From the NCBI GenBank assembly GCA_011523185.1, contig WTHI01000092.1:3048-58337 (forward strand): a DNA stretch of 55,290 nt, given 5' to 3'. Positions within the stretch are counted from its first letter, which is position 1, and every line of letters begins with the position of its first letter. A program made the position numbers and the translations under genes. The notes under the pieces are model-generated. The model saw nothing but the letters and a program-made list of their open reading frames with translations. It made no database searches and was not told the DNA's origin. Below are positions 5,029-24,685 of the stretch, one piece after another. This stretch comes from Methanobacteriota archaeon. Its GTDB lineage: Archaea; Thermoplasmatota; Poseidoniia; Poseidoniales; Thalassarchaeaceae.

Positions 5029-5105
5029 TGGTGGGCGCGCCAGGATTCGAACCCGGGTCACCGGCTTAGAAGGCCAGCATGATATCCAGACTACACCACG
5101 CACCC
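5029..5105 (-). tRNA. tRNA-Arg(UCU), intronless, CCA encoded
   Basis: Reverse complement GGGTGCG...CTGGC-CT-TCT-AA-GCCGG...GGTTCGAATCC...CGCGCCC-A-CCA forms a cloverleaf. Confidence 0.95.
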
Positions 5106-6575: not shown

Positions 6576-6652
6576 GGGCGTGTGGCGCAGCTTGGAAGCG
6601 CGCTTCCTTGGCATGGAAGAGGCCCCGAGTTCAAATCTCGGCACGTCCACCA
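6576..6652 (+). tRNA. tRNA-Ala(GGC), CCA encoded
   Basis: GGGCGTG/CACGTCC acceptor stem with G3:U70, anticodon arm CTTCC-TT-GGC-AT-GGAAG, T-loop TTCAAAT. Confidence 0.95.
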
Positions 6653-10452: not shown

Positions 10453-12197
10453 GTTGGAAAGATGGCGCTGAGGAAAGGGCTGAAAGCCTTCGTCGAATTA
10501 GGGAGAGCGCCGCTCAAGCTAGTTATGATTTCAAACGTGGATGGAAAATTTACAGAAGGTCTTTATTGGCAGTTGTCGGATTATTAATGGTCATTTCGAT
10601 TTCGGTTGTATCAATCTTTGCCGACGATATCGCTGTAGAACATCCTGGAAGAAATTTACAGGATACCAGAGATGTCTGGCATATCGACTACGAACCGAGA
10701 AAGGCCGCCCCTTTCTCAGAAGAATGTGACACGCGCTATCAGAAGGTCTCCCTCACAACTCTAAGGCGTTGGGGCGATAATGGCACCAGCGCTCTGAGTC
10801 CGACTAGAGTCGCAGATGACAACTCATTCTATCAGGACACACTTGTCGTGACGGAATTCATTGAAATGCAAGACCGTTATGGGGTTACCCTTGCGAGTGA
10901 TTTGGTCACTCTTGAGCCTTCAAATAATACATATTTCTGGTTTTCAGATGAGTTGATGGACAACAATTCTTTGACTCAAATCAAACTAATTTACACATTC
11001 GAGAACGATGCTATGCATCATTGGTGGTTGCCAGATGGTTATGATGTGTGTATCTTCGGCACGAATGACGAAGGTCAGGATTTATTCAGTAAAATTCTCT
11101 ATGGTTCCAGAGTATCCCTTACGATAGGATTCACCGTTGCGACCCTGACAGTGATTATTGGGACAGTTATAGGAAGTATTAGTGGATACTTCGGAGGTAG
11201 AACCGACGAGGTAATAATGAGAATTACAGATATCTTCTTCGCTGTCCCTGGGTTAATTTTAGCACTCGCTTTCGTCGCTGCATTACAAGCCGTAGATAAC
11301 TTCACAATTCCCCTTGCTTTGGCATTTTTAATTCCGATTATTGCCCTTGCAGTATACGCTAGAACGAATTTAATCGAGGTATTCATGCCAGGTTCGGAAG
11401 GTGTATCATTGCCAAAGATAAATCCAATTATTGGACTAACCCTGTTTATTGCTGCAACATTTTTCATAATTATTATTGAAGCACACCATGTATGGTACGA
11501 CGTCTTCGAGTTAAGTGATAGTAGATTTTGGAGACTATTGCTGAGTTTTATTGCAATTTTCACAATTGCAGGATTGTTGACTTTAGACAAACGACTAATT
11601 GAAAATTTTTCAACCGACGGATTTTCCAATCGAGCTCTAGATGTATTTGATTGGAAAAACCCATACCGATATCTCTCATTTAGGACGGTTGTGATTTTTA
11701 TTGCATCAATCGCTCTATTTTCATGGTCTGGAAACGGAGAAAATGAGATTGTTATTATAGAAAATTTTGATCGTCTCTGGAAAATTCAAATCGCTCTAGT
11801 ATTTACTGGATGGCCCGGCTATGCGAGATTGATTCGCGGTCAAGTATTGTACGTCAAAGAGATGACATTTGTCGAGGCCGCAAGGAGCGTCGGAGCACCT
11901 TCAGGCCGAATAATGTTCAGGCACATTTTACCTAATGCTTGGGCGCCATTACTAGTTGCTTTCACCTTGGATATCGGAGGTACCATACTTTCGGCATCAG
12001 GGCTTTCATTCATTGGATTAGGCGCAGAGCCAGGTGCTGCAGAATGGGGCAAACTAGTCTCCGATGGTAGAGCCCATTTCCCTCAGGATTACTGGTTGGT
12101 ATTATTCCCCGGTCTTGCCATCGCTTACACAACATTAGGATTCAATTTACTCGGTGATGGCTTACGAGATGTGGTAGATCCAAAGAACAGGAGGTGA
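10449..12197 (+). CDS. Peptide ABC transporter permease (DppC/OppC-like), enlarged
   Basis: FGTNDEGQDLFSKILYGSRVSL, FVEAARSVGA, HILPN, FNLLGDGLRDVVDPK; ATGA overlap with the upstream gene. Confidence 0.93.
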   Translation: MSWKDGAEERAESLRRIRESAAQASYDFKRGWKIYRRSLLAVVGLLMVISISVVSIFADDIAVEHPGRNLQDTRDVWHIDYEPRKAAPFSEECDTRYQKVSLTTLRRWGDNGTSALSPTRVADDNSFYQDTLVVTEFIEMQDRYGVTLASDLVTLEPSNNTYFWFSDELMDNNSLTQIKLIYTFENDAMHHWWLPDGYDVCIFGTNDEGQDLFSKILYGSRVSLTIGFTVATLTVIIGTVIGSISGYFGGRTDEVIMRITDIFFAVPGLILALAFVAALQAVDNFTIPLALAFLIPIIALAVYARTNLIEVFMPGSEGVSLPKINPIIGLTLFIAATFFIIIIEAHHVWYDVFELSDSRFWRLLLSFIAIFTIAGLLTLDKRLIENFSTDGFSNRALDVFDWKNPYRYLSFRTVVIFIASIALFSWSGNGENEIVIIENFDRLWKIQIALVFTGWPGYARLIRGQVLYVKEMTFVEAARSVGAPSGRIMFRHILPNAWAPLLVAFTLDIGGTILSASGLSFIGLGAEPGAAEWGKLVSDGRAHFPQDYWLVLFPGLAIAYTTLGFNLLGDGLRDVVDPKNRR

Positions 12198-12201
12198 AAG
12201 C

Positions 12202-13932
12202 ATGTCGGAACTATTGGATATCCAAGGACTTAGAGTTCACTTCGATACTCTTGATGGTCCTGTTGAAGCCTTGCATTCAGTATCACTTTCGGTGAAAGAA
12301 GGACAAATAATGGGTGTCGTCGGAGAATCTGGTTGTGGCAAGTCGGTTACATCTTTGGTCACAATTGGATTGGCAACTTGTGATGTTGATGAGGGAAGTA
12401 TCAAATTCGAAGGAGACGAATTGATACAAAAAACACCCGTAAAAACACAAAAAATCCTTTCCGTTCTAAAGTATTCTAGTTCAGCTTTCACTATTGGATT
12501 GATCCTTTCTATATTTTGGACCTTCTTGGAGCCAATACAAGGTTTACAAGGATCTGCAATAATGCTGACTGGATTTATCATTTGCTTTATCTCAGCGCGC
12601 ATACTAGACGCTCCGCGTAGTCGTCACGAGAAATTTATGCGTTCAATTAGGGGCAACAAAATTTCAATGATTTTCCAAGAACCAATGACTGCGCTAAATC
12701 CTCTATACACGGTAGAGAAACAAGTCGCCGAAGTACTGAAGCAACACAATAGATTAGACCATGCAGAAATCAGCAAAGTCTTAAAATTCGGCAAATCAAT
12801 AATTAGCCCGGCCGAAATGTTGGTCCGTTTCTTGAAAAATGATTGGAAAGGGGTTCTACCCCTAGTCTCAGTTTTCTTGTTAATTCTTATTTTTCATCAA
12901 ACGAATAACGCTTCTTTGATACTCGGATTGATAGCAAATAAATACGCTGTAATGATAATTGTCTCTGCGTTTGTTTGGCTAGTATTTTCTACTCTGTTTT
13001 TTGATAGGGGTGATGAAGATAGGGATTTCATCAAACATGATACAACGAGCACAGAGGAGATACCTGGCAGCATTGGATTACTCGAATATGTTAGGATAAT
13101 TGATGATTTCACAAGAGCTAATTATGCGTTAATTGTAGTGTCTTGGCTAGTGATTTCAATTCTTCTTTGGATACCCTTTGGGGTCTTGATGACTATTATT
13201 TTCAGCGGGGCAATTTTAGCGATTCCCCCCATTCAAATTTCAAATTATTTTTCTCTAGATCCCGCTCACACGAGGCAAGTTGTAAGAATCCTCAAAGAGG
13301 TTAGAATTCCAAATCCTGAAGCCGTCGTTAAGATGTATCCTCACGAACTATCCGGTGGAATGCGACAGCGAGTTATGATTGCAATGATGATGGCTTGTGA
13401 GCCAAAGTTACTAATCGCTGACGAGCCAACCACTGCACTCGATGTGACTATACAGGCTCAAATCCTCAACTTAATGAAAGATCTCCGAGATAGAGAAGGA
13501 ACTGCAATTATGATGATCACTCACGATTTAGGTGTAATTGCAGAAACCTGTGATGCAGTAACCGTCATGTACGCTGGATCGGTAGTTGAGACTGGCTCAC
13601 TCAAACAAGTTTTGGGCTCGCCAAGAATGCCCTACACAATCGGCCTTCTTCACAGTATCCCAAGAATCAAAGAAGCCGGTGAGGAGAGAGTTGACCTTCC
13701 AATTATCCCTGGTCAAGTCCCCGATCCCAATGAGAAGTTCGATGGTTGCAGATTCCATCCAAGATGTCCATTTGCGGATGACCTGTGTAGGACTAAACCG
13801 CCACAAATGCAAGAAGTCGCTCCCGGTCATTATGCGGCCTGCCACCATACTGAATTAACTGATAATCTAGTTGTGGCTCAGGAAGCATTTTCTTCAGAAG
13901 GGTTCCTTCAATCGGGGGTGAATGTTCAATGA
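12202..13932 (+). CDS. Peptide ABC transporter ATP-binding protein (DppD/OppD-like) with two hydrophobic insertions
   Basis: Walker [10 protein letters not shown]-loop IFQEP, signature LSGGMRQR, Walker B LIADEPT, H-loop ITHD, C-terminal GCRFHPRCP...C...ACH. Confidence 0.92.
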
Positions 13933-14975
13933 GTGAAGAAGATTCCAAACAGGTTGCAAACAATAAGCCTACAGAAGACCCCCATCCTATGATTAAAATT
14001 CGGAATGCAAAAAAGTGGTTTCCAATTAAGGCAGGAATGTTCTCTCCTGTAACCGCTCATGTTCGCGCAGTCGATGGAGTTGACTTAGATATCCAAAGGG
14101 GAGAGACTGTTGGAGTAGTAGGCGAATCAGGTTGCGGAAAAACAACTCTTGGCCGTTTGGTCATGGGACTTATTCCGAGAACCGAGGGTTCAATCGAATT
14201 CGACGGGATGGATATTTCCAACATGAAGCGTAAGGAACTCAGACGCCGTTTACAGATTGTATTCCAAGACCCCGGAGGCTCAATGAATCCTAGAATGTCA
14301 GTACGGTCGATTATTGCTGAACCCCTAATTGTGAATGGATTAGCCGACGGAGCGGAATTAACCAAGAAAGTCTCTGAGTTGCTAACAATTGTTGGTTTGA
14401 AGCCAAATCACATGACCCGATTCCCCCACGAGTTTTCAGGAGGTCAAAAACAGAGGATTGCTCTGGCTAGAGCCTTATCCTTAGATCCGGAGTTTATTCT
14501 TCTAGACGAACCTACATCAGCACTAGATGTTTCAGTTCAAGCACAGGTCCTGAACTTACTTGACTCGATCCAGAAGGAGAGAGGGCTTACCTTCATCTTC
14601 ATTACTCACTCACTAAATGTTGTCAATCATATTAGTGATAGAGTTGCGGTCATGTATCTTGGAAAGATTGTGGAAATAGCCGAGACCGACGAACTATTTG
14701 CTAATCCGGCCCACCCATATACTCATGCTCTATTGTCAGCAATCCCTCAGCCATCTGTAGAAGAAAATCAGAAGCAAAGAATCGTACTTTCAGGCGATGT
14801 CCCTAGTCCAGCAAATCCACCTAGTGGATGTAGCTTCCACACCCGCTGCCCCATAGCTGTAGAAGGCAAGTGTGACGTCGACGAACCAGAACTAAAGGCC
14901 ATAATCGGCGGCCACAAGGTAGCCTGCCATTTCCCGGTAGAAGCAGGTGGAAGTCTACCTATGCTGAACGATTGA
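13929..14975 (+). CDS. Peptide ABC transporter ATP-binding protein (DppF/OppF-like)
   Basis: GESGCGKT, FSGGQKQR, LLDEPT, HPYT, GCSFHTRCP. Confidence 0.95.
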   Translation: MSEEDSKQVANNKPTEDPHPMIKIRNAKKWFPIKAGMFSPVTAHVRAVDGVDLDIQRGETVGVVGESGCGKTTLGRLVMGLIPRTEGSIEFDGMDISNMKRKELRRRLQIVFQDPGGSMNPRMSVRSIIAEPLIVNGLADGAELTKKVSELLTIVGLKPNHMTRFPHEFSGGQKQRIALARALSLDPEFILLDEPTSALDVSVQAQVLNLLDSIQKERGLTFIFITHSLNVVNHISDRVAVMYLGKIVEIAETDELFANPAHPYTHALLSAIPQPSVEENQKQRIVLSGDVPSPANPPSGCSFHTRCPIAVEGKCDVDEPELKAIIGGHKVACHFPVEAGGSLPMLND

Positions 14976-24609: not shown

Positions 24610-24685
24610 GGGGGTATAGTATAGCCCGGTATTATTACCGGCTCCAGACCGGTGGAGGGGGGTTCAAATCCCTCTGCCCCCACCA
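24610..24685 (+). tRNA. tRNA-Trp(CCA), intronless, CCA end encoded
   Basis: GGGGGTA/TGCCCCC acceptor stem, ACCGG-CT-CCA-GA-CCGGT anticodon arm, GGTTCAAATCC. Confidence 0.93.

Follow-up and report, generated by a model that had tools for sequence, protein, structure and literature searches.

In ATP-binding cassette (ABC) transporters, a soluble motor contacts the membrane domain through short coupling helices only. The canonical OppD and DppD ATPases of peptide importers are soluble peripheral subunits of this kind. In the E. coli DppBCDF importer, as described in an excerpt of PMC12136057, DppB pairs with DppD and DppC pairs with DppF, and both ATPases carry [4Fe-4S] clusters. According to an excerpt of PMC6336850, most genomes of Marine Group II encode a transporter for oligopeptides. 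Here, we describe a peptide importer operon in a 55,290-nucleotide stretch of archaeal DNA (contig WTHI01000092.1, family Thalassarchaeaceae; hereafter the window). Its DppD-type ATPase is interrupted by two insertions that hold six hydrophobic helices. The insertions are real, conserved, and under purifying selection, and DppD is probably a conserved, membrane-integrated nucleotide-binding domain (NBD). If this is true, membrane helices are wired into the Q-loop strand and the helical subdomain. Such wiring would represent a new mode of coupling ATP to transport and a natural test object for coupling models, of interest to transporter specialists. In a very abundant archaeal group of the surface ocean, to which we tentatively assign the genome, the operon appears to serve as the main importer of peptides.

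A phmmer search against proteins of solved structure aligned DppD residues 1-75, 145-183, and 356-554 with residues 1-76, 82-120, and 128-324 of M. tuberculosis OppD (8j5q_D, E = 5.6e-104). E. coli DppD (8z1v_C) was likewise matched in three stretches (E = 1.8e-77). These separate stretches delimit two inserts in the window DppD (Table 1). Insert 2 is located after the first helix following the Q-loop and ahead of the helix preceding LSGGM. The Pfam ABC_tran match (PF00005) was also split, falling into two stretches (E = 2.1e-25; 90.4 bits, cut-off 25). Thus, instead of one uninterrupted ABC domain, DppD presents two stretches to Pfam and three to the solved OppD. The oligo_HPY domain (PF08352) is intact at residues 462-529 (E = 9.2e-18; 64.8 bits, cut-off 27.1). 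All ABC motifs are present in the proper order, namely Walker A (GESGCGKS, residues 41-48), the Q-loop (Q159), the signature LSGGM (383-387), Walker B and its catalytic Glu (D407-E408), the D-loop (ALD, 412-414), and the H-loop (H441). In an alignment of 32 sequences, these catalytic motifs were invariant or nearly so.

The sequence-only reading that preceded this work had drawn a similar picture. The lengths it gave for DppD (576 aa) and its DppF partner (348 aa) are those of the open reading frames (ORFs). Its two insertions, placed at about 12433-12630 and 12750-13270, were sharpened to 12427-12633 and 12751-13266 by phmmer. It had quoted two hydrophobic segments for the first insertion and about four for the second; all six strings occur in the translation, and Kyte-Doolittle analysis finds 2 + 4. 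The intact catalytic motifs and C-terminal Cys cluster it reported are borne out by the alignment, and the comparison with E. coli DppD that it had proposed delimits the inserts as described above.

The window DppD has four C-terminal Cys residues (C516, C522, C529, and C547), which are conserved and may correspond to the [4Fe-4S] site of OppD and DppD proteins. At loci L017, L027, and L023, the last ~50 residues of DppD form a different tail (CRFCQRM...) in place of the usual Cys-cluster region with its ...C...ACHH pattern. Part of the clade may therefore lack the iron-sulfur site. The curated NCBIfam cut-offs were not reached by DppD (NF007010 for OppD, 315.1 vs 575 bits; NF008246, 295.7 vs 541 bits), a shortfall that goes with the three-stretch alignment. 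Since the inserts push DppD below the curated family cut-offs, automatic annotation can under-call it.

In its core sequence, fold (TM-score about 0.9, target-normalized), ABC motifs, and oligo_HPY domain, the window DppD resembles the canonical OppD and DppD (8Z1V; 8J5Q, Rv1281c). The gene order A-B-C-D-F and the coupling-helix motifs of the permeases are also those of canonical Opp/Dpp importers. Unlike canonical OppD and DppD, the window protein has six membrane-type helices, housed in two inserts of 69 and 172 residues. It has in common with the end-to-end half-transporters, in which a transmembrane domain is fused to an ATPase, that membrane helices and the ATPase domain share one polypeptide; three such ORFs (583, 628, and 486 aa) are found in the same genome. 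However, the helices of half-transporters lie wholly before or after the ATPase domain, whereas those of the window DppD interrupt the domain at two internal loops. The translocation pathway of the window system is furthermore encoded by separate permease genes, unlike that of half-transporters. The OppD of Mollicutes (NF043079, MMSYN1_0167) is a further comparison. Its profile has 561 positions and the window Q-loop segment aligns to positions 293-343, implying a large insertion at site 1. There is no site-2 insertion in this profile, where position 343 is followed by position 346.

We called hydrophobic segments by Kyte-Doolittle analysis with a 17-residue window and a threshold of at least 1.5. 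Six segments were found in DppD between Walker A (residue 41) and LSGG (residue 383), at residues 93-109, 119-135, 215-231, 250-266, 310-326, and 330-346. Of the 18 ABC_tran matches of the genome put to the same test, 10 are stand-alone single-cassette ATPases, and these had no such segment at all. One two-cassette ABC protein had a single segment, located between the cassettes. An apparent second inserted ATPase of the genome (C8, 751 aa) was rejected, being PstC-PstA-gap-PstB joined over a scaffold gap of N. On the Hessa-2005 scale (19-residue windows), the four best windows of DppD scored from -2.2 to +1.8 kcal/mol, and the canonical DppB and DppC helices from -2.6 to +1.1 kcal/mol. In 15 other ORFs, the best window of the interval from Walker A to LSGG ranged from +6.3 to +15.8 kcal/mol. 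By both scales, the DppD stretches are long and hydrophobic enough to span a bilayer.

The arrangement of the segments and of the charges around them was examined in 15 orthologs carrying insert 1. The window DppD has an even number of helices in each insert (2 + 4). Insert 1 contained exactly two segments in all 15 sequences, and insert 2 contained four in 9 of them; the remaining six gave 3, 5, 5, 6, 6, and 7 segments with this crude caller. The four predicted cytoplasmic flanks held 0.156, 0.272, 0.156, and 0.081 Lys and Arg per residue, the last value belonging to the C-terminal flank of insert 2. In the predicted outer turns, which in the window DppD fall at about residues 110-116, 234-246, and 324-325, the values were 0.022, 0.058, and 0.000, in line with the positive-inside rule. 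Even helix counts and this Lys/Arg bias are the required signature of an insertion in a cytoplasmic domain that crosses the membrane and returns.

AlphaFold2 prediction of DppD from the 32-sequence alignment gave a mean predicted local distance difference test value (pLDDT) of 82. Insert 1 was predicted as a hairpin of two long helices (residues 80-109 and 111-152; pLDDT about 87-93), the second of which continues straight into the strand that bears the Q-loop. Insert 2 was predicted as seven helices. A Foldseek search with this model returned ordinary ATPase domains only, with TM-scores of about 0.9 when normalized to the target and about 0.5 when normalized to the query, corresponding to coverage of about half of the model. 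This indicates that no solved structure accounts for the inserts. An ESM Atlas search for look-alikes with insert 2 as the query yielded no usable match.

Because of the E. coli pairing of DppB with DppD and of DppC with DppF (excerpt of PMC12136057), we modeled DppB together with DppD. The two-chain model had a score of 0.75, as compared with 0.00 for the best of three controls. That level was reached by 58 of 80 solved complexes and by 2 of 110 mismatched pairs. At least 84% of the contacts were common to the runs, and the partner pLDDT was at least 74. The predicted coupling contact joins DppB residues 289-301, the coupling helix, to DppD residues 146-168 in the Q-loop region. The confident interface also takes in helix 1 together with the hairpin tip (insert residues 94-115) as well as helices 5 and 6 (residues 313-339). 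Resolved by helix, the predicted contacts with DppB involve residues 94-108 of helix 1, 313-320 of helix 5, and 327-339 of helix 6. On the DppB side, the interface comprises cytoplasmic residues 8-15, 135-140, and 370-389 as well as residues 101-112 and 163-177 at the outer ends of transmembrane helices (TM) 2 and 3. The latter would be reachable only by a membrane-crossing part of DppD.

The inserts are present in independently obtained DNA. A DNA run from another study yielded a single 2050-nt contig spanning positions 11928-13977 with 0 differences. In the DNA of a third study, the whole gene was recovered in two overlapping error-free contigs, and no joints were found. Contigs from two RNA libraries (12474-12823 and 12506-12808) lead without a break from insert 1 across the Q-loop segment to insert 2. 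The RNA-library contigs cover the operon partially and at low depth; they cannot show transcription, and uncovered parts are uninformative.

The long form is also widespread among relatives. It was found in 115 of the best 120 homologs listed, with at least 94% of the query covered, 69-96% identity, and lengths of 547-587 aa; the other five were fragments or partial matches. One homolog was labeled 'Euryarchaeota archaeon', and others came from Tara and other marine data; to judge from these sources, the organism is uncultured. Within the genus, 17 of the 24 other genomes encode the long form (E <= 1e-60). At 13 further loci of the same order, the operon reads A-B-C-D-F, and all 12 operons in which both genes are complete combine a long DppC (576-766 aa) with a long DppD (500-595 aa by ORF call). 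L024 contains a cut DppC only. L026 was dropped from all counts, its apparent DppD of 852 aa being two genes fused by a run of N at a scaffold gap.

More distant full-length relatives were reached with the insert region as the query. P0122, P0126, and P0132 (568-651 aa) have inserts in the same places at ~40-50% identity, and these are still hydrophobic; the hydrophobic character is thus kept where insert identity drops to about 40%. The library search with residues 76-355 returned 6843 matches at E <= 0.001, most of which cover the 40-residue Q-loop segment, and about a dozen clusters cover the inserts. Among 149 representative proteins from this search, internal hydrophobic segments occurred only in P0122, P0126, and P0132, all belonging to the family of the window DppD. 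In a quick maximum-likelihood tree, in which insert columns filled in at least 30% of the rows were kept and lengthen the stem, all 16 order-level DppD sequences formed one clade (SH-aLRT 100). The sister group consists of short forms from two other families (84).

To quantify selection, the ratio of nonsynonymous to synonymous substitution rates (dN/dS) was calculated by the Nei-Gojobori method against five close relatives, where dS is unsaturated. The three closest pairs that could be used gave a dN/dS of 0.016-0.03 for the ATPase core, and the fourth gave 0.125. Insert 1 had values of 0.07-0.16, and the two ends of insert 2 had values of 0.06-0.26. These low ratios indicate that the inserts are translated and constrained, with the exception of the fast-evolving central loop of insert 2.

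The further checks that the sequence-only reading had put forward can be judged from these data. Its concern about misassembly is answered by the independent DNA run, and the survey of orthologs finds the inserts in relatives. It had envisaged a model of the whole DppABCDF complex; the model obtained covers two of these chains and places the insert helices against the TM helices of DppB. The idea that paired hairpins would make DppD an integral-membrane ATPase gains support from the hydrophobicity, the constant pair of segments in insert 1, the Lys/Arg-rich flanks, and the two-chain model; membrane integration would be the probable reading of this sequence and modeling evidence. Finally, the sequence-only reading knew of no such architecture for peptide importers. 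No solved ATPase domain covers the inserts. Full-text searches, which extended to Marine Group II peptide transporters and mycoplasma OppD but not to subscription journals and supplements, brought up no account of an ABC ATPase domain with membrane helices inside it.

The five genes form a compact operon on the + strand, encoding a binding protein, DppB, DppC, the 576-aa ATPase, and the 348-aa ATPase, and Pfam assigns all of them to the expected families. DppD is thus encoded together with a binding protein of family 5, a pair of BPD_transp_1 permeases, and another ATPase, in an order shared by the relatives. The DppD gene, whose stop codon ends at 13932, overlaps the DppF start at 13929.

Table 1. 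Features of the peptide importer operon and of its DppD inserts (window coordinates).
Feature	Position	Strand	Basis and remarks
Substrate-binding protein (family 5, DppA/OppA type), 750 aa	6838..9090	+	Pfam SBP_bac_5, E 4.8e-60; first gene of the operon in relatives too
DppB-type permease, 393 aa	9271..10452	+	Pfam BPD_transp_1, E 1.1e-42; six hydrophobic helices; coupling-helix motif RTARAKG
DppC-type permease, 582 aa	10449..12197	+	Pfam BPD_transp_1 and NCBIfam DppC/OppC-type profiles, each matching in two stretches
DppC insert, aa 284-438, four extra hydrophobic helices between TM3 and TM4	11298..11762	+	Gap against short-form DppC of L028; low-confidence helix prediction
DppD/OppD-type ABC ATPase with two inserts, 576 aa	12202..13932	+	Pfam, phmmer, AlphaFold2
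Insert 1, aa 76-144 (69 residues), junction of beta-subdomain and Q-loop strand	12427..12633	+	Gap in alignment to 8j5q_D
Hydrophobic helix 1, aa 93-109 (insert 1)	12478..12528	+	Segment callers
Hydrophobic helix 2, aa 117-135 (insert 1)	12550..12606	+	Segment caller, Hessa-2005 scale
Q-loop segment of the ATPase core, aa 145-183, between the inserts	12634..12750	+	Aligns to 8j5q_D residues 82-120
Insert 2, aa 184-355 (172 residues), helical subdomain before LSGGM	12751..13266	+	Gap in alignment to 8j5q_D
Hydrophobic helix 3, aa 215-233 (insert 2)	12844..12900	+	Segment callers
Hydrophobic helix 4, aa 247-267 (insert 2)	12940..13002	+	19-residue sum -2.2 kcal/mol
Hydrophobic helix 5, aa 306-323 (insert 2)	13117..13170	+	Segment callers
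Hydrophobic helix 6, aa 326-346 (insert 2)	13177..13239	+	Segment callers
DppF-type ABC ATPase, 348 aa, without insert or hydrophobic segment	13929..14975	+	ABC_tran unbroken, oligo_HPY
Small conserved ORF of 125 aa; N-terminal half charged, two hydrophobic helices	15024..15401	+	48 nt after DppF; syntenic

Additional hydrophobic helices were found next to DppD. DppC has 9 hydrophobic segments, as compared with 6 in a short-form relative. The count was also 9 in 10 of the 11 long DppC orthologs examined, and 10 in the remaining one. AlphaFold2 prediction of DppC from 13 sequences was of low confidence (pLDDT 61.6) and was used for helix positions only. DppC also carries a ~170-aa domain between TM1 and TM2; its length is 582 aa, against 335 aa in a short-form relative. 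Among the fetched loci, the small downstream ORF adjoins DppF in 25 that have this operon type, at 37-100% identity, and is absent from those of other orders or families. It matched no Pfam family, and may be a candidate sixth subunit. When the isolated DppD inserts, the DppC insert, and the small ORF were submitted to Pfam, only sub-threshold matches at chance level were obtained (DUF751, E = 0.015; Pex24p, E = 0.063; Herpes_LMP1, E = 0.74). BLASTP comparison of the four sequences with one another gave a best E of 0.93, and thus there is no sign in this comparison that the helices originated by duplication or by transfer between the genes.

A divergent operon (L023, genome G049) distributes such helices differently. 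Its DppD is without insert 1 and has a single hairpin at site 2. In its DppC (766 aa), a four-segment N-terminal extension replaces the internal insert, and the outer domain is very long and Asp-rich. Its DppB (474 aa) has extra hydrophobic segments. In the quick tree, L023 is nested inside the order-level clade on a long branch, and the redistribution therefore looks like secondary remodeling.

Taking these data together, we consider it likely that DppD is a working OppD/DppD-type ATPase of a five-gene peptide importer, the NBD of which bears two membrane-directed insertions, with six helices in the bilayer packed on DppB. Insert 1 would form one helical hairpin on a stalk leading directly to the Q-loop strand, and insert 2 would send two hairpins out of the variable, membrane-facing part of the helical subdomain. 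Each hairpin would exit the cytoplasm, cross the membrane, and come back, leaving the catalytic core cytoplasmic and six helices in the bilayer. These would pack on the lipid-facing side of DppB, beside the retained coupling-helix contact. In structures of the maltose transporter, the permease core moves as one body with the helical subdomain and the coupling helix. If such one-body motion holds here, helices rooted in the helical subdomain could keep their packing against DppB during the whole cycle. Being short and uncharged, the outer turns would fit a mode of insertion in which no loop is fully translocated. The motor would then be permanently anchored in the membrane and assembled at fixed stoichiometry, with a much larger contact between permease and ATPase. 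The elements that sense ATP, namely the Q-loop and the helical subdomain, would be rigidly tied to membrane helices. The coupling-helix motifs are kept in both permeases (motif labels from an excerpt of PMC12136057), suggesting that the inserts supplement normal coupling and do not replace it.

The main rival to this membrane-spanning arrangement is that the inserts are hydrophobic but non-spanning. They would lie as re-entrant (monotopic) hairpins in the cytoplasmic leaflet or form a greasy bundle on the surface of the membrane or the permease, serving as a peripheral anchor only. We regard this as unlikely. Several observations speak for it or against the spanning arrangement. The hydrophobic stretches are short, about 17-20 residues each, and helices 1 and 2 are only moderately hydrophobic, being marginal at +1.5 to +1.8 on the Hessa-2005 scale. 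The turn between helices 5 and 6 comprises just 2-10 residues and is itself hydrophobic (WIPF), and the crude caller gave odd segment counts for insert 2 (3, 5, 5, and 7) in 4 of the 15 orthologs. A hairpin whose membrane entry has to follow the synthesis of 75 residues of cytoplasmic domain is an uncommon substrate for insertion. Residues 236-304, the middle part of insert 2, are nearly neutral, with a dN/dS of 0.4-0.8. Soluble or amphipathic, basic inserts are found at the same sites in other families (L028, L031, and L036), and a surface-binding role could therefore be ancestral. As regards the DppB-DppD model, much of its score stems from the textbook coupling-helix contact, possibly through likeness to solved Dpp/Opp complexes. 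The predictors work without a bilayer and hydrophobic helices tend to pack anyway, while the controls were unrelated proteins rather than decoy hairpins. DppB was moreover the sole partner modeled, chosen by analogy with E. coli. On the other hand, the turn of the first hairpin (EPIQGLQG) is conserved, and its Glu, Gln, and Pro residues would be costly inside the bilayer. Outer-face residues of DppB are among the confident model contacts, and the window scores of the DppD helices equal those of real permease helices; both are at odds with a purely peripheral anchor.

Two further readings set the inserts apart from a DppB-centered role or from the working protein altogether. The six helices of DppD, the four of DppC, and the two of the small ORF could make up a separate accessory membrane module for docking, regulation, or a second path, which would not mainly serve DppB. 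This seems quite unlikely to us. It would fit the joint occurrence of the extra DppC and DppD helices in every complete order-level operon (12/12), the presence of the two-helix ORF beside DppF in the 25 loci of this operon type and in no other locus fetched, and the way in which L023 redistributes extra helices between subunits and does not lose them. However, co-occurrence in one clade amounts to a single evolutionary event, the inserts show no sequence similarity to each other, the DppC model is of low confidence, and the DppB-DppD model sets the insert helices on DppB itself. It is highly improbable that the inserts stand outside the working protein, as an assembly chimera, part of a decaying gene, or an intein- or intron-like element removed before function; there is little to favor an artefact, a pseudogene, or an intein or intron. 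The inserts have a G+C content of 0.36-0.41, against 0.43-0.48 in the flanks, and the RNA-library contigs give no cover at the outer insert borders (12427 and 13266); both points count in favor of this reading. The low G+C content is that expected from codons for Phe, Ile, and Leu. Two independent DNA runs without differences or joints speak against this reading, as do RNA-library contigs of two libraries that pass unbroken from insert 1 into insert 2, and the frame is open, with a dN/dS below 0.3 in most of the inserts. For an intein, one would look for a Hint-domain or other Pfam match beyond the ABC-type families, a Cys or Ser at the start of the insert, and a His-Asn at its end; none of these was found, and insert 1 has just 69 residues.

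The two insert sites are insertion hot spots across the phylum. In four loci of other families (L031, L036, L037, and L040), DppD-type ATPases of 474-524 aa have inserts of similar sizes at the same two sites. These are highly charged, coiled-coil-like, or CxxC-bearing and have no hydrophobic segment, whereas those of the window DppD are hydrophobic. The site-2 inserts of L037 and L040 contain zinc-ribbon-like CxxC...CxxC motifs. No homology of these inserts to those of the window was detected, and no search was aimed at it.

Hydrophobic inserts occur at one of the same sites in two further families. In all four genomes of family f23 looked at (L039 and L045-L047), 3-4 hydrophobic segments sit in the DppF-type ATPase, where they occupy site 1, after Walker A and before the Q-loop. 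In three of these (L039, L045, and L046), four or five hydrophobic segments extend the partner DppD-type ATPase at its N terminus, and its site-2 insert is soluble. Family f4 belongs to another order (L020, L048, and L049); there, a 384-aa DppD has a two-helix hydrophobic hairpin at site 2 in 3/3 genomes of one genus. The f23 and f4 cases sit on tree branches apart from the clade of the window, which implies that hydrophobic hairpins inside the ABC ATPase domain arose more than once in the phylum. Both sites are filled, with 2 + 4 helices, in the clade of the window alone among those seen, making it the fullest case. In f4 loci of the other order of the class (L019, L020, and L029), a single fusion protein of 787-813 aa combines both permeases and is accompanied by short ATPases.

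A bolder extension of the membrane-spanning arrangement is, in our view, doubtful. The window operon would then represent a new class of ABC importer in which the ATPase itself is integral. Its twelve accessory helices (six supplied by DppD, four by DppC, and two by the small protein) would form a second membrane domain around the canonical pore. The helices rooted in the Q-loop strand and the helical subdomain would relay ATP-driven movements directly, in parallel with the coupling helix, or would let the membrane or the permease gate hydrolysis. The hot spots would record repeated, independent moves of the motor into the membrane.

The binding protein at the head of the operon begins with a hydrophobic N-terminal signal ending in LAGC. 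Within its N-terminal ~120 residues, this lipobox-like LAGC is followed by an Asp-rich linker and by three tandem repeats of ~30 aa that contain Cys and conform to the pattern NYN..A..DDGSC. Three tRNA genes were located in the window at 5032-5105 (-), 6576-6649 (+), and 24610-24682 (+), one of them 190 nt ahead of the binding-protein gene.

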